Both the position numbers and the translations under genes were made by a program. A DNA stretch of 13,536 nucleotides, taken from positions 1 through 13,536 of the forward strand of contig JAUSKK010000032.1 in the NCBI GenBank assembly GCA_030649345.1, written 5' to 3'. Positions 1 to 10,875 of the stretch are shown piece by piece. Below the pieces are notes generated by a model. It saw only the letters and a list, made by a program, of their open reading frames with translations, was not told the origin of the DNA and did no database searches. The first letter of the stretch is position 1; every line of letters starts with the position of its first letter. The DNA is from Candidatus Iainarchaeum sp. (GTDB lineage Archaea > Iainarchaeota > Iainarchaeia > Iainarchaeales > 0-14-0-20-34-12).

Positions 1-64
1 ATGATTGGAGGCCAGGGTGAAAAGTAAGCCTTTTTTATTATCTTCCATCTATGTATATGATTAT

Positions 65-139
65 AGCGGGGTGGGGCAGCCTGGAGTGCCCGTCGGGCTC
101 ATAACCCGAAGGTCAAAGGTTCAAATCCTTTCCCCGCTA
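65..139 (+). tRNA. tRNA-Met (anticodon CAT), initiator-type
   Basis: Hand-folded cloverleaf. Acceptor 65-71 AGCGGGG pairs with 132-138 CCCCGCT. D stem 74-77/88-91. Anticodon stem 93-97/105-109 with loop CTCATAA (CAT at 100-102). 5-nt variable loop. T stem 115-119/127-131 with loop TTCAAAT. Discriminator A139, no encoded CCA. The A1:U72 pair plus three consecutive G:C pairs closing the anticodon stem are the archaeal/eukaryal initiator signature. Elongator Met or a modified-CAT Ile2 tRNA cannot be strictly excluded from sequence alone. Confidence 0.9.
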
Positions 140-177
140 TAATAAACTAATTCTAAGAAAAATTGTACTAATTGAAA

Positions 178-580: not shown

Positions 581-1093
581 ATGATATTCAAAACAATTGT
601 TAGAAAGTGTTTAAATGCATTAGATAGACTAAAAGAGTGGAGTAATGAAACAAAATACAAAGAGCCTAGAAAAAAGGTTGAAAATTCAGAAAACAAGCAA
701 GAACGGAGAATATTCTCCTTATGGGACTTTGTAGACTTCCAAAATGACACCCAAGCAGACCATTTAGTTAAAGTTGTTGGATTTGAAGAATTTGTAGATA
801 TGGATGAAATTCGAAGAAGAATAAGGGAAGTCTTGCAAATCGAATACAAGAATGAACGAAGCTTATACCCATACATCAAGACACTTGCAGACACAGGATT
901 CCTAGAAACCAGCAATGTAGGCGGAAGACGAAAATGGCGAAAACGAGAATTAATGTTTGAAATAGTAACTAAAAAAGAAGCAACACAAACTAAAGAAACT
1001 CAGATAGAAAAAACAATGGAGGAACCACACAAAATGTTGGAATTACGATGGTTAGAACAAAGACAAAATAAAACCAAAAAAATAGAAATATAG
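581..1093 (+). CDS. Hypothetical protein with PadR-like winged-helix DNA-binding region
   Basis: 170-aa ORF. The segment FVDMDEIRRRIREVLQIEYKNERSLYPYIKTLADTGFLETSNVGGRRKWRKRE resembles the PadR/MarR-type recognition helix plus wing (the xLYPxLkxLexxGfle ... RRK pattern). The competing antisense ORF 574-915 is Ser/Leu-rich and shadow-like. Confidence 0.6.
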   Translation: MIFKTIVRKCLNALDRLKEWSNETKYKEPRKKVENSENKQERRIFSLWDFVDFQNDTQADHLVKVVGFEEFVDMDEIRRRIREVLQIEYKNERSLYPYIKTLADTGFLETSNVGGRRKWRKRELMFEIVTKKEATQTKETQIEKTMEEPHKMLELRWLEQRQNKTKKIEI

Positions 1094-1111: not shown

Positions 1112-1699
1112 CTAGTTTACTAAAACCAATTTTTGAAGACGATCATGCAATTCTTTAAATTTTTTAACTTTTTCAGAAGTTTGAAGTGCTGTCTTAAACC
1201 AGTCATCTGCAACAATCTTTTCAGAAGTAATTAGAATTTTTTTAATGTAATTTTTATCAGGATTTTCTAATGAAGTCAAATACGTTAAATCATCAAAAAT
1301 GCTTTTTTTAGAGCTTAATTTAGTACGTTCAATTAAGTGAAGAACAGACTCAACCACTAAATTTGAATTAACGTCTTTTTCATCCATATAATAGACAGCT
1401 TTCCAATTTCCTTTAACTTTCCAATTATGAGTAGGATTAATGCCTGTTTTAAAAAAAGAAGTTAATTTTTGAAACGCTGACTGAGGAATAATAACACAAT
1501 TTTTGCCTGTTCGAACATACGGAAAATTGGACAAAATTCCATCCCGAAAGTATTTGTATTGTTTGCCTGTGCCTTTGTTTACATTTTGAGTATACCCATA
1601 AATAGCTCTAAATAATTTTTGATATTCATAAGACGAGTGTTTTGTATTTTCAGGTAAAATGAATTTATATTGAATAAAATAACCACGCACCACCCCCAA
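1112..1699 (-). CDS. Hypothetical protein (no family recognised)
   Basis: 195-aa ORF. The listed start at 1699 is TTG, and in-frame GTG codons follow at 1693 and 1690. A GGGGTG Shine-Dalgarno-like block sits 7 nt upstream of the first GTG, so the true start is probably 1693. The next Met is residue 105. The N-terminal half shows an alternating strand/helix pattern and the C-terminal half looks helical. Confidence 0.55.
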   Translation of the reverse strand: MGVVRGYFIQYKFILPENTKHSSYEYQKLFRAIYGYTQNVNKGTGKQYKYFRDGILSNFPYVRTGKNCVIIPQSAFQKLTSFFKTGINPTHNWKVKGNWKAVYYMDEKDVNSNLVVESVLHLIERTKLSSKKSIFDDLTYLTSLENPDKNYIKKILITSEKIVADDWFKTALQTSEKVKKFKELHDRLQKLVLVN

Positions 1700-2317: not shown

Positions 2318-3151
2318 TTAGATTGAATCCAAAGGACTTTTCACTCGTTTTAATTCTTCAATGGAAACCTTAGTGTAAATTTGAGTTGTAGACAAATCAG
2401 CATGACCTAATAATTCCTGGATTTTTCGGATATTTTCTCCAGACTCCAATAAATGAGTTGCAAAAGCATGGCGTAAACTATGGGGTGTAATAAGCTTGGT
2501 TATTTTAGCACTAAAACAAGCTTTTTTGACAATTCGCTCAACTGTATCTGTAGATAACGGAGAACCATTCTTTTTAGTGAAAACATACTCTGATTTGGTC
2601 TTTTTGCCATTTAAATGATTTTTAATCTCTTTAATCCATTTTTCGGACAAAACAATCATTCGGTCTTTATTTCCTTTTCCACCCCTGACCATTCCAGTAT
2701 GATCTCCAAAAGACAAATCATTAATTTTCAAATTAACACATTCACTAACCCTAGCCCCAGTAGAGTACATAAACTCCAACATTAACCGATTTCGAGTATT
2801 GGATACAACACTAAACAAACGAGTTAATTCCTCTCTAGACAACACAATAGGCAGTTTTTTGGACTTTTTAGGACGCTTAATTTCCTCTAAACATTTGTTG
2901 TTTAAAACAGTCTTAAAGAAGAATTTAAGGGAAGAATACACTAAGGCTAAAGTAGAGCTATTTACTCCTGAATTGCGTTTTTTGGCCAAAAACCCAATTA
3001 CAATATCATGGTCAATTTGGGAAGAAGGGACGTTTAAGGTATCCAAAAACTCTCGAACATAGCCAGTGTACATGCTTAAAGTGCGTGCAGAATAGCCTGT
3101 AACGATTAATTCGTTTTTGAACTTAGCTAACAAAGCATCTTTTTCATCCAT
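2318..3151 (-). CDS. xerA: Tyrosine recombinase, XerA/XerC/XerD family
   Basis: 277 aa with an N-terminal SAM-like core-binding domain (TLSMYTGYVREFL). Catalytic motifs are present: ARVSE (box I Arg), GKGNKDR, HSLRHAFATHLL (H-x-x-R) and LLGHADLSTTQIYTKV (His/Tyr nucleophile). Size and architecture match the archaeal chromosome-dimer resolvase XerA. A mobile-element integrase of the same family cannot be excluded. Confidence 0.8.
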   Translation of the reverse strand: MDEKDALLAKFKNELIVTGYSARTLSMYTGYVREFLDTLNVPSSQIDHDIVIGFLAKKRNSGVNSSTLALVYSSLKFFFKTVLNNKCLEEIKRPKKSKKLPIVLSREELTRLFSVVSNTRNRLMLEFMYSTGARVSECVNLKINDLSFGDHTGMVRGGKGNKDRMIVLSEKWIKEIKNHLNGKKTKSEYVFTKKNGSPLSTDTVERIVKKACFSAKITKLITPHSLRHAFATHLLESGENIRKIQELLGHADLSTTQIYTKVSIEELKRVKSPLDSI

Positions 3152-3541: not shown

Positions 3542-3927
3542 CAAGAAACTACTCTATAGGTCATACTCCAATAACCCTAAAAACCCTAAAATGGTTCGAT
3601 AAGTAAACTTTTCCTGACTTATTTGGTTTGCTTTTGGTTCATTATTTGGCATAATTATTTGTTTTCCGAATGGTTTGTTTTAGGTGTCTGATTTGTTGGA
3701 AAAGTGATGAAATTTATTCCGTTGACTTAATTTTTCAGTTGACTTTTTGAAAAAGCCTGGTGTTAGGTAATTTTCTCAGAACCTAAAAATTAACCTAACT
3801 TATTCACTCAATAAAGTTCCTTTGTTTTTTCTTTGAATTTGTATGCAAAAGAGCTAATTACTCAAAATATTGGACAATGCTTGTTTTGAGCCAAACTGAA
3901 TTTAACGTATTTTTACCTTAGTTTGGA

Positions 3928-4767
3928 TTAGATCCGTGTTATTTTAGGTTTAGGGTTAGGCAGTTGGTCTAGTAAGTCTAAAACTTTAGGTTTTTCAGTT
4001 CCTAAACTTTTAGAATCTATGAGAATTTCAGTTACTGGCTCTTGGGTATTAACAATCATTTGACTTAGAAGGTCTTTTGTTAAGTAGGTTAAGCCATGTT
4101 TTGGGCAAACAAAGGCAATAGCGTAGTTTTTCTCTAAAACTAACTTATTGAATGAACTGCAATAATGGTTGCCTCCTAAAGCTATGGCAACCAACTTGTT
4201 TTGTTTTGAGGAATAATCCGTTTCCAGGATTGTTTGAGCAATAATTTGTCCTCCTAATGGATCTTGCCAAGCTGTTTCATTGGACCCAAGTTCTATGAAG
4301 ACTGAAGGCTTGGTTAGAAATGGACCGTGATGGGTGGCTTCCATAGTGATCTCGTAAGCCAAATTTTGACCATTTTTGGCTTTTTGAAGGGCTTTTAGAT
4401 AACTTGCTTGAATAATGGCTGAGGTTGGGCAGATTGTGTTTTCTTTTCCACCTAGTTGAGCTAGGCCGAAGTTTCCAATGGAATGAACTGTTAAGCTCGG
4501 AATTCCTTTAGCGCTGGCGTGTTTGGACGCAAAAACAAACAAATCAGCAGAAATTTTATTCACATAATCTGCAATTACTTGGAATTCATTAATCGTATAC
4601 AATTTAAAGTTTTGGAATTCAAGGCCAAATTTTTGGCTGTGAAATTCAAATACTGAATTCCCATCAAATTCTTCTTTAGTTTCCTTAAATTCAACTAATT
4701 CCAGTAAAGCTTGTTTAATGGTTAAACCAGCTAAATCTTGTTTGGATACAATAATTGCAATATGCAT
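3928..4767 (-). CDS. dtdA: D-aminoacyl-tRNA deacylase, archaeal type (DtdA)
   Basis: 279 aa. Family-typical blocks: MHIAIIVSKQDLAG at the N-terminus, FASKHASAKGIPSLTVHSIGNFG, MEATHHGP, VFIELGSNETAW and AIALGGNHY. Length and block order match archaeal DtdA. Confidence 0.8.
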   Translation of the reverse strand: MHIAIIVSKQDLAGLTIKQALLELVEFKETKEEFDGNSVFEFHSQKFGLEFQNFKLYTINEFQVIADYVNKISADLFVFASKHASAKGIPSLTVHSIGNFGLAQLGGKENTICPTSAIIQASYLKALQKAKNGQNLAYEITMEATHHGPFLTKPSVFIELGSNETAWQDPLGGQIIAQTILETDYSSKQNKLVAIALGGNHYCSSFNKLVLEKNYAIAFVCPKHGLTYLTKDLLSQMIVNTQEPVTEILIDSKSLGTEKPKVLDLLDQLPNPKPKITRI

Positions 4768-4781
4768 AGTATAGAAAACTA

Positions 4782-6080
4782 ATGCAAAACAAATTAAATG
4801 CAGGAATGCCTATAGTCTATATGCGATCGATGCGTAGAACTGTTGGTAGAGTTTCTTTTGGACAAGCAGCTAGAGAAATTCAACAACCAACTGGAAGACA
4901 TAAACGTTTGCCTTTTCAAACAACTCAAATGAAAGTTCCTGTTCAATTAATCAAAAAATTAGATCGAAAGCTTAGAACACGGTATAAGCCTCCTAGAAAA
5001 GGAAAGCCGGCTGAAACCAAGCTCCGAAATGCTGTTATATTCCAAAGAGAAGTTTTAGAACGCTTAAAAGGAGTTGGAAGAAAATTAAATGCTATTGAAT
5101 TGGTTGCGTCTTTAATTAGAGAACATGGTTTTGAAAAAGAAAATTTAATGCCTTTTTTAAATGCTGCATTGGCTTTAGAACGAGCAGTTCCAAGAAATGC
5201 ATTATTTGTTGGAACTATTGGGAATATGCTAAAATCCGTGAACAATGGATCTTTGCAAAAAATAGATTCCTTATTGCAACGAACACAACAACAATTGCAC
5301 ACTACTTCCAATATTGCTAGTGTAGTTATTCCAGGATTTTCCTCCATGATTGGAGTTGAACGAAAACAAGCACTAATTCAAGTGGCTGCAGCTTTAGGTG
5401 TATTGGAAGCCATGAAGCAAGTATCTCGAGAACCTTTACATCAAAACAAACAATTTACTTGGGTTAATTTTGATCACAGAACACAAGCACCCAAACCAAC
5501 ACATAATATTGGATATCGTGTTTTTACGAAACTAAAAGAAACTGGCCCAATTCACCAAACTGAGTTGGTTGCTCGATTAAATCTTCCATCTTCTCATGTA
5601 GTTAGTCAATTGGGCCACTTGGAAAAAGCAGGAGTGGTTCAAACTAAGTATGTTTCTGGTGTGAAAGGCAAAACAGGAGCTGTAAAAGAAACTAGACTAA
5701 CTCGGTTTGGTCAACAGTTGGCTACAGCTCAAGAAAAGGCTAGAACAATTTTGCCGGAAGTTAGAGAAATTTTAGTTGGAGAAAGAACAGGGAAACCCAG
5801 CAAAGCAGAAGAACGCACACGAGATCGAATTGCACGTTGGTTAACTATAGTGAATTTACGTCAAAAAACTGGTTGGGGTGAACGAAGAATTGCCCGAGAA
5901 CTTAAAATCCCTGTAAAATATGTGGTTGGAATTATACGCGAAGGAACCAAACCATACTCAGTAAGATCTGGCCCAGAATATTTTTTGACCCAAATTGAAT
6001 TACTGAAACGAAAAGACTTAACTCTCGGAAGGCAATTTGAAAAATACTGCAAAGAACAAGGCTTAATTCCAAAGAAATAA
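4782..6080 (+). CDS. Orphan multi-HTH DNA-binding protein (MarR/ArsR-like winged helix plus C-terminal HTH)
   Basis: 432-aa ORF. Residues ~243-310 (YRVFTKLKETGPIHQTELVARLNLPSSHVVSQLGHLEKAGVVQTKY...TRLTRFG) form a classic wHTH. Residues ~352-386 (RWLTIVNLRQKTGWGERRIARELKIPVKYVVGIIREG) look like a second HTH. The protein is rich in Arg/Gln, unlike its Lys/Asn/Ile-rich neighbours. The start is uncertain: ATGs at 4782, 4806, 4821, 4830 and 4929. The dtdA divergent promoter must overlap the first codons, and a TATA-like AGTATAGAAAA at 4768-4778 would favour 4806. Confidence 0.65.
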   Translation: MQNKLNAGMPIVYMRSMRRTVGRVSFGQAAREIQQPTGRHKRLPFQTTQMKVPVQLIKKLDRKLRTRYKPPRKGKPAETKLRNAVIFQREVLERLKGVGRKLNAIELVASLIREHGFEKENLMPFLNAALALERAVPRNALFVGTIGNMLKSVNNGSLQKIDSLLQRTQQQLHTTSNIASVVIPGFSSMIGVERKQALIQVAAALGVLEAMKQVSREPLHQNKQFTWVNFDHRTQAPKPTHNIGYRVFTKLKETGPIHQTELVARLNLPSSHVVSQLGHLEKAGVVQTKYVSGVKGKTGAVKETRLTRFGQQLATAQEKARTILPEVREILVGERTGKPSKAEERTRDRIARWLTIVNLRQKTGWGERRIARELKIPVKYVVGIIREGTKPYSVRSGPEYFLTQIELLKRKDLTLGRQFEKYCKEQGLIPKK

Positions 6081-6260
6081 CTACTTAAAATCGAATTTAG
6101 CTTGAAACAGAGTTTAAACGCATTATTTTGCCTGTTTTGATTTAATGCCTGAATGGGTTATCCCTAGCAGACTAAATAAATTCAAAGAAAGTGGTTTCAA
6201 AAACATTTTCCTAACTTTTTTCAATATTCACAAATTTTTTTAAAAAAATTTTTAAAAATA

Positions 6261-6289
6261 AAATTCCATCCAACACTATTTCTTGGACA
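6261..6289. repeat. Left arm of inverted repeat (AAATTCCATCCAACACTATTTCTTGGACA)
   Basis: The reverse complement of 6962-6986 is AAATTCCAGCACGATTTCTTGGACA. It aligns to 6261-6289 with 23 of 25 aligned positions identical plus one 4-nt indel. Confidence 0.8.
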
Positions 6290-6594
6290 AAGCGTTCGAA
6301 TTTTAAAAAAGAAAAATTAATTAACTTACAAAATAATATTTTTAGATTGAATATGCCTGAACCAAAAAAACGCGGAGAAATTGCAGAACAAACTACTGTA
6401 AGAATTCCATTTGAGCACTTAAGTGAAGCAGCAAAGCAATTAATTGGTGAAACATTGGATCTGGAATTCCAAATTTAGGTTATCGAATTAAATTTCCTTA
6501 AGAAATTCAGAAAGTACACGAATGATTAAAAGAAACGGTTAACAAACACGGAATTTTAAACACCAAATTTGAAGGGTATTATCCATTCAATTGG

Positions 6595-6936
6595 ATGAGT
6601 GCAGGTGTTGTAGCCAAAACTCACCCAATCTTTTACGTTACTGGAAGAGGCGATATGGTTTTCAAAAAACCAACTAGATTAGAATACATGCGTTATTTAG
6701 ATCAAACTCGCTGGTATGGAAAACTAGGATTAACTCCTTGGAGATGGCGAGCTTACCTTGAGCCACCTCAAGTTCCAGCAAAGGTTAAAGATTGGGCTTT
6801 AGGTAAAATGCAGGCAATCCGGGCCAATCGACCAAAATTAATGCCGCAACCAGTGCGCGTGCCAATTCCTATAAGGGGCAGAAGAAAGCTAAAACAAGCC
6901 AGAATTAGGCCCAATCGCAGGCGTTTAAAACCTTAA
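6595..6936 (+). CDS. Hypothetical highly basic Arg/Pro-rich protein
   Basis: 113-aa ORF with no family recognised. The C-terminal third is RVPIPIRGRRKLKQARIRPNRRRLKP. By eye it is visibly more G+C-rich than the surrounding DNA. T-runs directly follow its stop. The frame is open back to 6526, but ATG 6595 is the first start codon. Confidence 0.4.
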   Translation: MSAGVVAKTHPIFYVTGRGDMVFKKPTRLEYMRYLDQTRWYGKLGLTPWRWRAYLEPPQVPAKVKDWALGKMQAIRANRPKLMPQPVRVPIPIRGRRKLKQARIRPNRRRLKP

Positions 6937-6953
6937 TTTTTTCAGTATTTTTT
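6937..6953 (+). terminator. Oligo-T tracts immediately after ORF 6595-6936
   Basis: TTTTTTCAGTATTTTTT starts at the first base after the TAA stop (6934-6936). Confidence 0.4.
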
Positions 6954-6961
6954 AGAAGGAC

Positions 6962-6986
6962 TGTCCAAGAAATCGTGCTGGAATTT
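6962..6986. repeat. Right arm of inverted repeat (TGTCCAAGAAATCGTGCTGGAATTT)
   Basis: Partner of 6261-6289. Its first 18 nt also recur in direct orientation at 10771-10788 with 17 of 18 identical. Confidence 0.8.
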
Positions 6987-7497
6987 AGATAGTTCTAATT
7001 CCTTAATATCAAGCATACTTCACTACTGTCATTCAAAAAATTTTTATGAAAAGAATTCAAAGCGTCTTAAGGATTCCTATTGAGCGCAGATAGCTCTAAA
7101 GCATATTCAAAATTTCTAAAAAGAAAAAATTAAGGGAAAATTGAGCCATTTCCATAAAGCTCAGCAAATAGGCCTGAAAGTGCCTTAAAACGCTCCTTTT
7201 AGCTGTTTAGAACCAGTATATAGTATGCGGGATAATCATTGTTATACCGAATTACATATAGGCCTTTCAGAAACAGTTTAAACTGCTTTAATGTAGTCTA
7301 AACTGGTTAATAAACGTAATTGAGATGACTGAATGAATTGGTGAAGATGGCCGGAAAAGAATTTGAGCTGGTTGAATTGAAGATGGCTTGGTTAAACCTG
7401 TAAAAATCAAGAGTTTTGTCCAAAAAATTGCGTTCAATACTACTCAAAATCTTGGACAGTACTTAGAAAACTAAAAAATTAATTAAATTAAGTTGTT

Positions 7498-8223
7498 TTA
7501 GGGCGCTTGGTTGCTTTTGTATTTGCCAATCAGTTCTGTTTCTTGGATAATATGCCCTTGCATAGCAGAAACCAATTCTTCTTTAAGAGCGCCTTCGGAT
7601 AAGGTTAATTCTATATCCAATGCGTATAAACTGAAAATATAGTGGTGTTCAAATGGTTCTAAATCAGATGGCGGGCAGGGACTGGAATATTCTTTAGTAA
7701 ATCCTGTTCCAGGCAAACCAGGCGGTTGCTGTCCTTCTAAGATTTCAGTTGTACTTGAAGGTAGGTTGAATACAATCCAGTGAACAAATTCACCTTCTGG
7801 CACTTCATTTACAAAAGCATACGGAACATCTGGATCAGTCATAATTAATGCAAAACTTTGAGTATTTTCAGGAATATTGGAAATGGTTAATGGCGGAATT
7901 AATTCTTGTCCTTCGCAAGTGTATTTTGCAGGAATACTGCCATTATGGGTAAACACTGAACTGGTTAAAGTAAAAGGAATTGTGGGTTCTTCTGTATTTG
8001 GAATTTCAGGTTGTTCAACATTTTGTGGAGTATTGTTTTCTTCTGTTTCAGGCAAAATTTGTTCTGTTTCTATGATTGGTGGTGTTTGTGGTTGTTCTTG
8101 TCTTTCTTCTGTGATTGTGGTACTAGAAGCTGTTGCAGGATTTTCTTGAACTGGTTGTGGTTGCGTACAGCCTGCTGTAAGCACAATCAGTAAAAGGATT
8201 GCAATGATTGCGTTTGTTTTCAT
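7498..8223 (-). CDS. Secreted PEBP-family (YbhB/YbcL-like) protein with lipobox-like signal peptide
   Basis: 241 aa. The N-terminus MKTNAIIAILLLIVLTAGC is a signal peptide ending in a lipobox-like Cys. A ~70-aa Pro/Glu/Thr/Gln-rich linker follows. The C-terminal domain carries PEBP hallmarks: NGSIPAKYTCEGQELIPPL, ALIMTDPDVP, FVHWIVFNLP, SPCPP and HHYIFSLYALD. Confidence 0.85.
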   Translation of the reverse strand: MKTNAIIAILLLIVLTAGCTQPQPVQENPATASSTTITEERQEQPQTPPIIETEQILPETEENNTPQNVEQPEIPNTEEPTIPFTLTSSVFTHNGSIPAKYTCEGQELIPPLTISNIPENTQSFALIMTDPDVPYAFVNEVPEGEFVHWIVFNLPSSTTEILEGQQPPGLPGTGFTKEYSSPCPPSDLEPFEHHYIFSLYALDIELTLSEGALKEELVSAMQGHIIQETELIGKYKSNQAP

Positions 8224-8234
8224 ATTTAATCTAT

Positions 8235-8600
8235 TTATAGTTTTCCGTTTTTTGCAAATTGATTAATTTGCATAGCCAATACTGCTAATCTTGCTTTAGG
8301 TATTCTTTGGATTTTGGTTTCAAAATATTCTCTTCTTCCGCTCAGCATTTTTTGGCTAGGAATCCATGAGTTTCCTTTCTCATCTGTATAGCTAAACATT
8401 TGGTCCAAGATTTCGTTTTGTTGTCTATGATTTAATTCTTCGAATGCCATAATTGCTTGTCGCATTTCTTTGTTTTGATAAACTGGCACTGAATCTTTCC
8501 AATGTTTTTCAATTAAGCTTTGTTGGGTTGTTTTAAGTTCCCATTTTCGTACTGGTTCTGGTGTTTCTTCTTCTTTGGTTCTCAGCTTAAACGGATTCAT
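8235..8600 (-). CDS. Hypothetical protein (121 aa, predicted helical)
   Basis: The ORF has a good SD (TAAGGAGAA) 6 nt upstream of the ATG. It lies 12 nt downstream of the preceding ORF and 11 nt upstream of the PEBP gene, so it appears co-transcribed. No family recognised. Confidence 0.6.
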   Translation of the reverse strand: MNPFKLRTKEEETPEPVRKWELKTTQQSLIEKHWKDSVPVYQNKEMRQAIMAFEELNHRQQNEILDQMFSYTDEKGNSWIPSQKMLSGRREYFETKIQRIPKARLAVLAMQINQFAKNGKL

Positions 8601-8612
8601 ACAATATTCTCC

Positions 8613-8972
8613 TTATTCTTCTACTGTGATTTCCAATGTTTGATTATTTTCTTTATTAATGTCTGCAAATGTATTTCCATGTTCCAATACTTGAACTTTA
8701 ATAAGTTTTCTTCCTGGGCTTGTATTAATTTTTGGAAAAATATGATAGTAAATTGTTTTTTCTGCATGAGGTTGAACTGCTTCCAATCGTTCTACTGCAG
8801 ATCCTTTCAATCCACTTTTATCAAAAGATAATTCATTGTTCAATAATGTTTTGACTGTCATATGTCTTGCGCGTTCATCTAAATTGGCAATTATGACTTT
8901 AAGCTCTAAAGGCTCTCTTCTTTTTAGAACCATTCTTAATGGAGCAAATCTTGTTGTAATTCGGACACTCAT
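8613..8972 (-). CDS. Hypothetical protein (119 aa, beta-rich)
   Basis: First gene of the 3-gene minus-strand cluster. SD-like GGGGTGG lies 4 nt upstream of the ATG. Alternating hydrophobic pattern (LELKVIIANL, MTVKTLL, KLIKVQVL, TLEITV) suggests a beta-sandwich. No family recognised. Confidence 0.6.
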   Translation of the reverse strand: MSVRITTRFAPLRMVLKRREPLELKVIIANLDERARHMTVKTLLNNELSFDKSGLKGSAVERLEAVQPHAEKTIYYHIFPKINTSPGRKLIKVQVLEHGNTFADINKENNQTLEITVEE

Positions 8973-9115
8973 TATTCCACCCCTAATTTCCCCTATAACT
9001 GTGATCTGTTTGTATGATTGATGGTTATTCTAAGTTTAATACTTTGCTATTCCAATATTTTGTGTAATTATTGATTTTTGGCCGAAAACCTTAAAAATAA
9101 GTTAAGAATATAGTA

Positions 9116-9144
9116 TTTCCTAAGGAAACAATTTATTTCCTTAG
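9116..9144. promoter_or_regulatory. Operator-like element: palindrome TTTCCTAAGGAAA plus downstream TTTCCTTAG half-site
   Basis: Inverted repeat TTTCCT / AGGAAA with a 1-nt spacer at 9116-9128 and a half-site at 9136-9144, ending 10 nt before the ATG at 9154. The stretch 9116-9143 matches 10802-10829 at 26 of 28 positions. Confidence 0.6.
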
Positions 9145-9153
9145 AGATTTCTT

Positions 9154-9750
9154 ATGGAAGTTCCTGAAAGTAGTTTGATTCGTAAAACTTTGGTTTTACG
9201 GGAAATGGATTTGCCTCCACAAATTCAATTAACCAAGCGTTCGATGCTGCGCTGGTTTGCTTTATCGTTTGGCTTACTAAATGAACAAGAATCTCGCGTA
9301 ACTGTTCTGCACATTTTAGATTCTTTGTTTTATTTTTTATTCACAGAGAAAAAGAATCCTTCTACTTTAGAATTGCAAGCTTTTATGAAAAATCAATTCA
9401 GTATTACTGTGTCCGAGAAATTGATCCGGTACCATTTAAATAAATTGATTGATTTGCATTTATTGCATCGCAAACAAAACAAATATCATATCAATAATCA
9501 TCCGTATGCTGACCGAGATGATTTTGTGGCTTGTTTTGACTATTGGATTAAACAATCTACAGAACGAAGCTTGGCCAATATTCAAACAGTGGTTGCCCGT
9601 ATTGTAGATAACTATAAATCTCAAAAACCTATTGTTGTTGAACCTATTAAACTAACTCCAATTGAAACTAAACCTTTACCTAAAGAAGAACCTTATGTAA
9701 GTGAAACTGAACGCAAACAAATTGATGAAATGTTAGACTCTTCGGATTAA
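9154..9750 (+). CDS. Winged-helix transcriptional regulator (putative)
   Basis: 198 aa. The segment STLELQAFMKNQFSITVSEKLIRYHLNKLIDLHLLHRKQNKYHIN reads as helix-turn-helix plus wing. The gene is divergent from the 8972 operon and directly preceded by a palindromic operator-like site. The acidic C-terminal tail looks disordered. Confidence 0.6.
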   Translation: MEVPESSLIRKTLVLREMDLPPQIQLTKRSMLRWFALSFGLLNEQESRVTVLHILDSLFYFLFTEKKNPSTLELQAFMKNQFSITVSEKLIRYHLNKLIDLHLLHRKQNKYHINNHPYADRDDFVACFDYWIKQSTERSLANIQTVVARIVDNYKSQKPIVVEPIKLTPIETKPLPKEEPYVSETERKQIDEMLDSSD

Positions 9751-10721
9751 TTCAACACACATTCATTATTCGTTTTTTCCACAATTTCAAATGCATTTTC
9801 TTTGTCAATTTCAGTTACTATTTTTCCTTGCTCAGCCCATACTTGCTGGCATTGGAATCCAAACGAACAATCTATGCAGGCATAATTAATTTTACATTTC
9901 CCAGTTCCTGTATCTTCTTGAATTGTTTTCATTCCTGTTTGGCAAGCTGTTTGTACTGTTTGTCCTTGTCCGGTGAATTTTAAACTTTCTTCCGAGTAAT
10001 TGGTTTCATCCGTGGTTTCTTGTACTTTGACTTTTAACTGATAAACTCCATTTTCTTTGACTGAAATACTGGCTGAAAATATTTGTTCTTCATTGGCAAA
10101 TAAATCAAATTCTTCCAATTCTTTTGTTTCCATAAATTCTGTTTGAATTTGCCGATTGATGGTAAATTCTTTGAATAATTCCAAGTTCACTTTTCCTCTG
10201 GAAGGACTTTTTCCAGTATTTTTGACTGTAAAATTAACTACAAAAGTTTCGCTTTGACTTAAGTTAATCTCAGGTAAATTTTCTTTGAGTTCGATTTTAA
10301 ACTGTCCCGGAATGACTCCAACATAAGTTTTGCAAATAATTAATTCTTGTTCTCTGCACCTAACTCCTATTTGGATCGGGCTTCCTTTTTTGAGTTTAAG
10401 TAATCGTTCATCCCATTCAATATTTTTCGAACAGACTTCCCCTTTCAAACAACACAATTTGGAATCATTGCAGGCAAATACTATGCTTCGATTTCCAGTA
10501 TCTAAAAGGGTTGCAGTTAATGTTGTGGGTGCTACTTGCCGAAAGGATTCCCCTAAATAAGTTCCTAGCTTTATTTCAGCTCCTTGTAATTGTTCTTGAA
10601 TTTTTTCACTAACTTGGGTTTCTCCTAAAAAATAAGGCAAAATATACTGAAAGAACAAGAACAACAAAGCAATGGTTACAATTGCCGAAATTAATAATTT
10701 GAAAACAGATGATTCAACCAT
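9747..10721 (-). CDS. Membrane-anchored Cys-rich extracellular protein
   Basis: 324 aa. N-terminal hydrophobic helix FKLLISAIVTIALLFLFFQYILPYFL. Cys clusters occur at both ends of the ectodomain (FACNDSKLCCLKGEVCSKN, VRCREQELIICK, TACQTG, GKCKINYACIDCSFGFQCQQ, NNECVLN). A central beta-sandwich-like stretch reads FVVNFTVKNTGKSPSRGKVNLELF. The stop codon overlaps the stop of ORF 9154-9750 within TTAA at 9747-9750. Confidence 0.7.
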   Translation of the reverse strand: MVESSVFKLLISAIVTIALLFLFFQYILPYFLGETQVSEKIQEQLQGAEIKLGTYLGESFRQVAPTTLTATLLDTGNRSIVFACNDSKLCCLKGEVCSKNIEWDERLLKLKKGSPIQIGVRCREQELIICKTYVGVIPGQFKIELKENLPEINLSQSETFVVNFTVKNTGKSPSRGKVNLELFKEFTINRQIQTEFMETKELEEFDLFANEEQIFSASISVKENGVYQLKVKVQETTDETNYSEESLKFTGQGQTVQTACQTGMKTIQEDTGTGKCKINYACIDCSFGFQCQQVWAEQGKIVTEIDKENAFEIVEKTNNECVLN

Positions 10722-10801
10722 TATAGTCTTACGATTTTATCCTTAATTAAGATTTCCTGAAAAACAAGTTTGTCCAATAAATCGTGCTTAGAAATACTCT
10801 G

Positions 10802-10830
10802 TTTCCTAAGGAAACAAATTATTTCCTTTA
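10802..10830. promoter_or_regulatory. Second copy of the TTTCCTAAGGAAA operator-like element with half-site
   Basis: Palindrome at 10802-10814 and half-site TTTCCTTTA at 10822-10830. A further TTTCCT half-site at 10753-10758 sits next to the TATA-like TTAATTAA (10745-10752) of the minus-strand gene starting at 10721. Confidence 0.6.
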
Positions 10831-10846
10831 TTCTTACAATACTTTC

Positions 10847-10859
10847 TTTCCTTAGGAAA
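10847..10859. promoter_or_regulatory. Third palindrome TTTCCTTAGGAAA
   Basis: Same 6-bp arms with a 1-nt spacer (T instead of A). It lies 17 nt beyond the stop of ORF 10876-11250. Confidence 0.5.
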
Positions 10860-10875
10860 TAATCTTTTTCTTTTA

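Follow-up and report, generated by a model that had tools for sequence, protein, structure and literature searches.

Some archaea have been reported to carry xerA/dif modules, and inverted repeats around the dif site of Thermococcales were described by Cortez et al. 2010 (PMC2958812). In T. kodakarensis, dif lies in a 1.9-kb convergent intergenic region, and an SMC boundary is made by the sequence surrounding dif and not by dif or XerA itself (PMC11840125). Here we describe a motif family with the core TGTCCAA (TTGGACA on the other strand) in a 13,536-bp stretch of DNA, hereafter the window, which is one whole contig (33% G+C) from a metagenome-assembled genome of the Diapherotrites/Iainarchaeia lineage of DPANN archaea. 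The motif is a conserved, polar and linear recognition element found lineage-wide, and in the window it brackets a probable dif site, a layout common to one clade of relatives. It is a kind of cis-element not catalogued for archaea and is amplified, in the genome of the window, around a probable xerA/dif module.

The dif flanks of Thermococcales, T. kodakarensis included, likewise combine a 28-bp dif or dif-like site, an unusually long convergent intergenic region and a XerA gene with repeated elements that stand on both sides in opposed orientation (PMC2958812, PMC11840125); the likeness drawn here is one of layout. The T. kodakarensis boundary, however, depends on TrmBL2, a filament-forming protein, and on the shape of the DNA, with no defined 16-bp motif (Yamaura et al. 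2025, PMC11840125). Unlike the Thermococcales repeats, the Iainarchaeial motif includes a universal copy with no dif-like site detectable anywhere near it.

The Tus-Ter (E. coli) and RTP-Ter (B. subtilis) systems use asymmetric sites of ~16-23 bp, few per genome and arranged in opposed groups around the terminus and dif, and in Bacillus the gene of a small winged-helix terminator protein adjoins Ter sites. The motif shares with these systems its asymmetry and its few copies and, possibly, the opposed groups around dif. There is no sequence similarity, however, the inner pair of copies in the window has the wrong polarity for a fork trap, and no Tus or RTP homolog was detected; the conserved neighbouring proteins of the motif locus have no known fold match or function. 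Reb1, TTF-I (with its “Sal box”) and mTERF use polar, sequence-specific sites between the end of a gene and the next promoter, with no need of a U-tract. To our knowledge, no protein-roadblock terminator or insulator has been described in archaea, and the resemblance of the motif to these eukaryotic and organellar roadblocks is functional only, with no homologous factor identified. Known archaeal termination requires a U-tract, with aCPSF1 (PMC8716108, PMC7515710). Intrinsic and aCPSF1-assisted terminators resemble the motif in standing directly downstream of stop codons, but they are U-tracts after most genes, whereas the motif is A-rich on the sense strand, anchored by G/C and found after few genes.

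A conserved motif at the ends of genes

A preliminary description of the window had listed eight exact TGTCCAA/TTGGACA cores against an expected 1-2, and all eight are present where, and on the strands on which, it placed them. In dinucleotide-preserving shuffles of the window (n = 200), 2.24 +/- 1.65 copies are expected and eight were reached in 1 of 200; after multiple testing this count is unexceptional by itself, and TATTGGA is more enriched (16 vs 2.6 expected). It is the extended form, not the 7-mer count, that makes the motif family real. The pattern TGTCCAANAWWTNGNG (TGTCCAA-N-A-W-W-T-N-G-N-G) is matched exactly by six copies, all of them intergenic and within the non-coding 20% of the window (P = 6.7e-5), as had been claimed. 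When up to two mismatches are allowed, 15 matches are found where 1.97 are expected, and 0 of 200 shuffles gave as many; since the pattern was derived from the six exact copies, the fairer figure is nine additional matches against about two expected. Two copies, in coding sequence at 1527-1533 and 4858-4864, have the core only, do not match the extension and look like chance, and the second of these thus loses the place in the family that it had been given. Reading the sequence confirmed the identities reported within subfamilies (17/18 and 16/17), the degenerate copy at 9049-9064, and how far the copies lie from stop codons (51, 25 and 39 nt) and from start codons (64 and 49 nt).

For comparison, 62 Iainarchaeia loci (L-numbered; ~0.95 Mb, G+C 26-52%) were gathered by anchoring on a conserved 195-aa gene. 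They hold 63 strict motif copies, 56 of which are intergenic. A position weight matrix (PWM) with the consensus TTGTCCAA[G/C]A[A/T]TTTGTGTT (also given as TTGTCCAAGATTTTGTGTT) has 120 matches of at least 14 bits in these loci, compared with 8 in reversed-sequence controls, and apparently comprises two direct half-sites, TTGTCC and TTGTGT, 12 bp apart. Two intergenic copies in L002, a locus of 47% G+C, read TGTCCAAGATT[A/G]TGTG.

The motif is an asymmetric 16-20-bp signal that stands at fixed places in >50 related DPANN archaeal genomes. At least 54 genomes have one orthologous copy located 0-30 nt (mostly 0-5) past the stop codon of the TFE gene (177-185 aa, identified by PF02002) and 92-235 nt upstream of tRNA-Met on the same strand. 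Where a locus has no exact TGTCCAA core, this TFE-tRNA position holds a variant, for example CCTGGACA or TAGGACA, and in many genomes with complete +/-10-kb coverage the TFE copy is the only one. As the contig starts at the tRNA, the TFE copy of the window itself would fall past the left contig end. The motif copies cluster in the XerA-PRC-195aa-winged helix-tRNA neighbourhood and are nearly absent elsewhere in the loci. A degenerate window copy (1028-1043) lies at +656 from the anchor gene, the same place and orientation as intergenic copies in L013, L016 and L022 (+653 to +659).

In a clade of 13 genomes, a further copy is embedded in the 195-aa gene. Within it, 0 of 5 third-codon positions are variable, compared with 41 of 41 in the flanks (P = 7e-7), and variable positions overall number 1 of 16 as against 99 of 122. 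The motif is thus under purifying selection as a nucleotide sequence, which excludes both chance and a young miniature inverted-repeat transposable element (MITE).

The gene beyond the GNG tail of the motif is on the opposite strand in 51 of the 56 intergenic copies, so that the sense strand carries the stop codon and then CNCAAWWTNTTGGACA; the sense-strand form is (W-T-W-A)-CNCAAWWTN-TTGGACA, and the short W-T-W-A element precedes most non-TFE copies outside the window. The preliminary description was right in seeing a real motif family, mostly intergenic and fixed in its relation to gene ends, but the orientation that is conserved is opposite to the one it emphasized: CNC...TTGGACA on the sense strand, after the stop codon. 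Besides the TFE and embedded copies there are 10 tandem-sense, 2 tandem-antisense, 11 convergent and 0 divergent sites; because many of these are orthologous, they amount to ~7 independent tandem placements, all of them sense. A tract of five or more T occurs within 60 nt of 12% of motif-followed genes and of 42% of other genes, and the sequence after motif-followed genes is A-rich (47% A). At the motif sites, the run of at least five T on the sense strand just after the gene, by which an archaeal U-tract terminator is recognized, is scarce.

A probable dif site near the XerA gene

The preliminary description had missed a dif-like site in the largest gap of the window, near the XerA gene (Table 1). 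This 561-bp gap between convergent genes carries three motif copies, and the XerA gene is 4 kb away. The dif-like site is the only one in the window, where shuffling leads to 0.023 expected per window, and it has 14 of 28 positions in common with what we take to be the bacterial dif consensus. Its 11-6-11 inverted repeat has the architecture of Xer dif sites. To judge from its sequence, 7225-7252 is a probable XerA recombination site (dif, for chromosome-dimer resolution) and probably forms, with XerA (2318-3151), a xerA/dif module of the lineage.

Orthologs of the dif-like site were found in L005, L006, L008, L019 and L049, with the XerA gene 2.5-4 kb from the site. The L019 version, ATGCAGCATAA-TCTGTA-TTATGCTGCAC, is an 11-6-11 inverted repeat with inner ATAA/TTAT. 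Strict dif criteria yielded 5 sites in the loci and 0-1 in shuffles; four of them, in L006, L008, L019 and the window, share the syntenic place, and the remaining one is A/T-rich and lies in an L025 coding sequence. At the syntenic place L005 and L049 have less palindromic sites, which consensus-based or relaxed criteria recovered. Similar relaxed searches near the TFE copy in other genomes gave none that was convincing.

The six genomes with a local dif-like site are also those in which extra motif copies flank it, on one side or both and, on the nearer side(s), at 165-570 nt; the extra copies of other lineages stand elsewhere in the XerA-tRNA neighbourhood. The TTGGACA end faces the dif-like site in 14 of 15 copies in the relatives and in 4 of 6 in the window, the exceptions there being the innermost copies, 6962(+) and 7443(-). 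The motif may be used as a marker for finding xerA/dif modules in Iainarchaeia genomes. It is not itself dif, which has 28 bp with 11-bp arms and a 6-bp spacer: the motif is asymmetric, six copies lie within 7 kb where a dif site is single-copy, and the only dyad among them is the pair 7417/7443, with 16-bp arms and a 10-bp spacer.

The motif-flanked long gap is 79% identical between L005 and L049, and a conserved core of ~220-280 nt in it is also kept in L006, L019 and L008. Positions 7141-7253 of the window, which include the dif-like site, match this conserved non-coding block weakly with nhmmer (E = 0.0016). The block also has a canonical TATA-like GTTTTATACATAA and a hairpin YTGCAC...GTGCAR with a few compensatory changes, and may represent a small RNA gene or an accessory region for XerA.

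Table 1. Features of the window, with coordinates in the related loci for the conserved non-coding block
Feature	Position	Strand	Sequence	Remarks
tRNA-Met(CAT)	64-140	+		universal motif copy of relatives 92-235 nt upstream
Degenerate motif copy	1028-1043	-	ATTCCAACATTTTGTG	within 3' end of 170-aa gene
XerA tyrosine recombinase gene	2318-3151	-		NCBIfam NF040815 (recomb_XerA_Arch), 260.5 bits vs cut-off 220; Pfam Phage_integrase
Motif copy	3861-3876	-	TGTCCAATATTTTGAG	exact extended match; PWM 20.4 bits; between convergent 58-aa (+) and DTD2 (-) genes, 51 nt from DTD2 stop codon
Motif copy	6274-6289	-	TGTCCAAGAAATAGTG	exact extended match, PWM; tandem-sense; sense reading CACTATTTCTTGGACA, 193 nt past stop codon of 432-aa gene; ATG at 6354 64 nt downstream
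Motif copy	6962-6977	+	TGTCCAAGAAATCGTG	exact extended match, PWM; 25 nt past 113-aa stop codon, 248 nt left of dif-like site
Dif-like site	7225-7252		ATGCGGGATAA-TCATTG-TTATACCGAAT	11-6-11 layout, arms 9/11 palindromic, inner ATAA/TTAT
Motif copy	7417-7432	+	TGTCCAAAAAATTGCG	exact extended match, PWM; sense reading 65 nt past PEBP stop codon; 165 nt right of dif-like site
Motif copy	7443-7458	-	TGTCCAAGATTTTGAG	exact extended match, PWM; 39 nt from PEBP stop codon; inverted pair with 7417-7432, 10 nt between
Degenerate motif copy	9049-9064	+	ATTCCAATATTTTGTG	2 mismatches, PWM 14.4 bits; upstream of 119-aa gene
Motif copy	10771-10786	+	TGTCCAATAAATCGTG	exact extended match, PWM; sense reading 89 nt past 124-aa stop codon; 324-aa start 49 nt downstream, palindromic TATA-like TTAATTAA between
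Conserved non-coding block (~280 nt) around dif-like site	L005 5640-5920; L049 4672-4952; L006 6396-6676; L019 5336-5616; L008 6195-6360

What the motif may do

Most likely, the motif is bound as double-stranded DNA by a putative sequence-specific protein. The local helix-turn-helix (HTH) proteins, which had been put forward as binders, have become weaker candidates, because two of their genes have conserved palindromic candidate operators of their own: GTAATTAC repeats just upstream of the 170-aa winged-helix gene, and TTCC-N3-GGAA just upstream of the 198-aa (164-aa in relatives) winged-helix gene. In DPANN archaea, which are uncultured and whose cis-regulatory and chromosome-organising signals are almost unstudied, the motif provides a concrete DNA bait for binders.

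We infer that a protein binds the motif and that the motif stops transcription, and the reading we rank first, though only tentatively, is that of a protein-bound polar roadblock or insulator at the ends of transcription units. The motif would sit at the downstream border of a transcription unit, where the putative bound protein would stop RNA polymerase reading out of the upstream gene and so shield the sequence behind the motif from read-through. In all Iainarchaeia the shielded region would be the tRNA-Met promoter region, and in the window and one related clade it would also take in the dif-like site of XerA and the 3' ends of convergent genes. This reading is placed first because it accounts for the constant distance from the TFE stop codon, for the sense rule, for the lack of divergent sites and the scarcity of T-tracts, and for all window copies, every one of which, inner pair included, is readable as halting transcripts before a convergent gene or the dif-like site. 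If true, it would represent a termination mode not yet described in archaea.

Several observations weigh against such a roadblock. At 1-3 copies per 20 kb the motif is too rare to be a general terminator, and the embedded copy, 158 nt short of the stop codon of its host gene, is awkwardly placed for a terminator. For the window copies 3861, 6962 and 7443, the nearest stop codon is one to which they stand in the opposite orientation. Furthermore, most conserved sites are orthologous, so the orientation rule stands on only ~7 independent placements, and the direction of a copy with respect to transcription and its direction with respect to the dif-like site are confounded.

Second in rank is a role at the level of the chromosome, in which the motif would be a polar site of the Xer/dif neighbourhood with copies oriented towards dif, acting as a XerA accessory site, as an SMC boundary or roadblock, or as a Ter-like barrier. 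All copies cluster in the neighbourhood of XerA, the six genomes with a local dif-like site have it bracketed by extra copies, (-) on the left and (+) on the right in the above proportions, and the sequence surrounding dif in T. kodakarensis forms an SMC boundary (PMC11840125). We nevertheless regard this role as doubtful, as most genomes have the TFE copy alone with no dif-like site within +/-10 kb, and a chromosome-level site has no reason to hug the TFE stop codon. Moreover, the two innermost window copies point away from dif, which would be lethal in a strict fork trap, and copies of L022, L031, L038 and the L059 clade are oriented the “wrong” way unless these genomes have dif elsewhere. 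That a putative polar DNA-binding protein organises the Iainarchaeia terminus, the dif-pointing copies being Ter-like fork barriers or CTCF-like SMC boundaries, is quite unlikely; it would be the first sequence-defined polar terminus system in archaea. Any part in the dif or terminus machinery would bear on how XerA recombination or SMC positioning gets its direction without FtsK.

Alternatively, a transcription factor may control the promoter downstream of TTGGACA (that of tRNA-Met, PRC, the 324-aa gene or the 41/113-aa genes), the motif being its operator, upstream activating site or promoter-proximal element. Genes do start 9-100 nt downstream of the motif in tandem contexts (in the window, 49 nt for the 324-aa gene and 64 nt for the ATG at 6354), a TATA-like WTTAWAAGG stands 8-20 nt past TTGGACA in the L059 clade and at several window copies, and the direct half-sites suit tandem winged-helix binding. 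Yet there are no divergent sites, the 11 sites between convergent genes have nothing to activate, and the distance to the tRNA varies while that to the upstream stop codon is fixed; no TATA box was found at constant distance from the motif across all sites, and A/T-rich boxes are common in this DNA. On balance, promoter control seems unlikely. The regulator site and the terminator-associated element, both among the roles first proposed for the motif, remain live, but MITE ends, another of these proposals, are refuted. Copies that are short, dispersed and inverted and that bound non-coding segments such as 6962...7458 do recall the ends of a degenerate MITE or insertion sequence (IS) family, and the unremarkable 7-mer count recalls a chance cluster, but both are scarcely credible given a position kept in >50 genomes across their range of G+C and the frozen synonymous sites of the embedded copy. 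The scans of other sequence collections point the same way, with single matches per contig only: a window-specific 18-mer had 72 matches in metagenomes, on contigs unrelated to the genome of the window, and a scan of viral sequences gave 65, on contigs without homologs of the window locus genes. Finally, the sense orientation at gene 3' ends, embedded copy included, would suit an RNA-level signal, CNCAAWWUNUUGGACA, by which a putative RNA-binding protein or nuclease acts on the 3' untranslated region or its processing. One conceivable task is to part the TFE mRNA from a tRNA-Met precursor transcribed along with it, such co-transcription being plausible since no T-tract lies between TFE and tRNA. 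This we hold to be decidedly improbable: RNAalifold on 53 orthologous copies returned 0 pairs and no conserved secondary structure, which fits a linear recognition site, there is no pairing partner, and in the window several copies either stand hundreds of nt away from the closest stop codon or run antisense to the gene nearest them.

Other candidates were rejected outright. MITE or IS terminal repeats fail in that similarity ends after ~20-35 nt and the bounded segments have no related interior. An inversion or shufflon with copies 3861 and 10771 as breakpoints relative to L002 is contradicted by the 324/198/119-aa block, which is collinear by ortholog mapping. An RNA hairpin or long-range pairing was dropped for want of a consensus structure and because the single copy of most genomes has nothing to pair with. 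A coding reading, TGT CCA NNN NNN TGY (Cys-Pro-x-x-Cys), does not suit copies that lie after stop codons or antisense to genes, some of which contain TGA, and as a tRNA fragment or att site the motif resembles the tRNA T-arm only weakly and in the wrong direction. The origin recognition box (ORB) and ucm motifs of archaeal origins do not match in sequence. ORBs and mini-ORBs are, like the motif, asymmetric protein-binding repeats that cluster in long non-coding regions and are often inverted, but the ORB core, TTCC...GAA (PMC1904270), is absent from the TGTCCAA motif. No orc1/cdc6 gene was seen among the inspected genes of the window, L002, L004, L005, L025 and L054, and no Pfam Cdc6/AAA+ domain was found in the window proteins scanned or in the precomputed families of L002-L004 genes. 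The region 6180-6270 is very A/T-rich and has a motif copy on one side only.

Gene content and minor features of the window

The window begins with tRNA-Met, which is the only Rfam match, followed by genes for a 170-aa PadR-like protein, the conserved 195-aa protein, a PRC-barrel protein and XerA, and by a 58-aa open reading frame (ORF). The middle part encodes DTD2, an orphan 432-aa HTH protein, a 41-aa and a 113-aa ORF and a PEBP protein, and the right part 121-aa, 119-aa, 198-aa, 324-aa and 124-aa proteins, IDI2, IPK and a HAD hydrolase. By its A1:U72 pair and GGG/CCC anticodon stem, the tRNA-Met reads as an initiator tRNA; in the relatives, TFE and the motif always come before this tRNA.

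The organism stands isolated. Its nearest IDI2, at 88% identity, lies on a 1.6-kb contig, and the next relatives are ~60% identical. A scan of genome contigs with DTD2 for further parts of the genome of the window gave no match. L002 and L004 have their gene neighbourhood in common with the window. DTD2 abuts IDI2 in these two loci, while in the window (3928-6080) DTD2 and the orphan 432-aa gene are 6.5 kb off and in opposite orientation; the window neighbourhood has thus been rearranged, and the PEBP, 121-aa, 113-aa and 432-aa genes have been gained. The 41-aa (6354-6479) and 113-aa (6595-6936) ORFs are on one strand with 115 nt between them and may be a split or decayed gene. They are flanked by the inverted motif copies 6274-6289 and 6962-6977, which are complementary at 18 of 20 nt.

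The 195-aa protein (1112-1699, minus strand) has ~420 database homologs, whose sources are named Diapherotrites, Iainarchaeum or unclassified archaeon, and its gene adjoins those for XerA, the PRC-barrel protein and tRNA-Met in the loci whose neighbours were inspected. Its AlphaFold model (pLDDT 93) has an alpha/beta N-terminal part, which we read as ferredoxin-like, and a helical tail. There was no match to it in the PDB by sequence or by fold, nor an informative one to the PadR-like neighbour.

Some other repeats were noted. In the window as a whole, TCCAATA/TATTGGA (16 vs 2.6 expected) and ATTCCAA (17 vs 4.9) are enriched, mostly in coding sequence, possibly owing to codon or dipeptide bias. 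A GTAATTA(C) array upstream of the PadR-like gene, at 505-570 in the window and 20410-20470 in the distant relative L002, is probably the operator of the PadR-like protein itself. TTCC-N3-GGAA palindromes (TTTCCTAAGGAAAC) occur at 9118-9131, 10806-10818 and 10850-10862, and TTCCAC[C/T]GGAA is found at the start of the 164-aa gene in L005, L006 and L049. The core of these palindromes is common to archaeal mini-ORBs, which makes an origin element the alternative, but, standing immediately before the 198/164-aa winged-helix gene, they probably serve as its operator. Positions 290-470, in the stretch from the tRNA to the 170-aa gene, contain periodic repeats of the direct-repeat families (A)nTAGGTTAAA and GTTGTTAAA.

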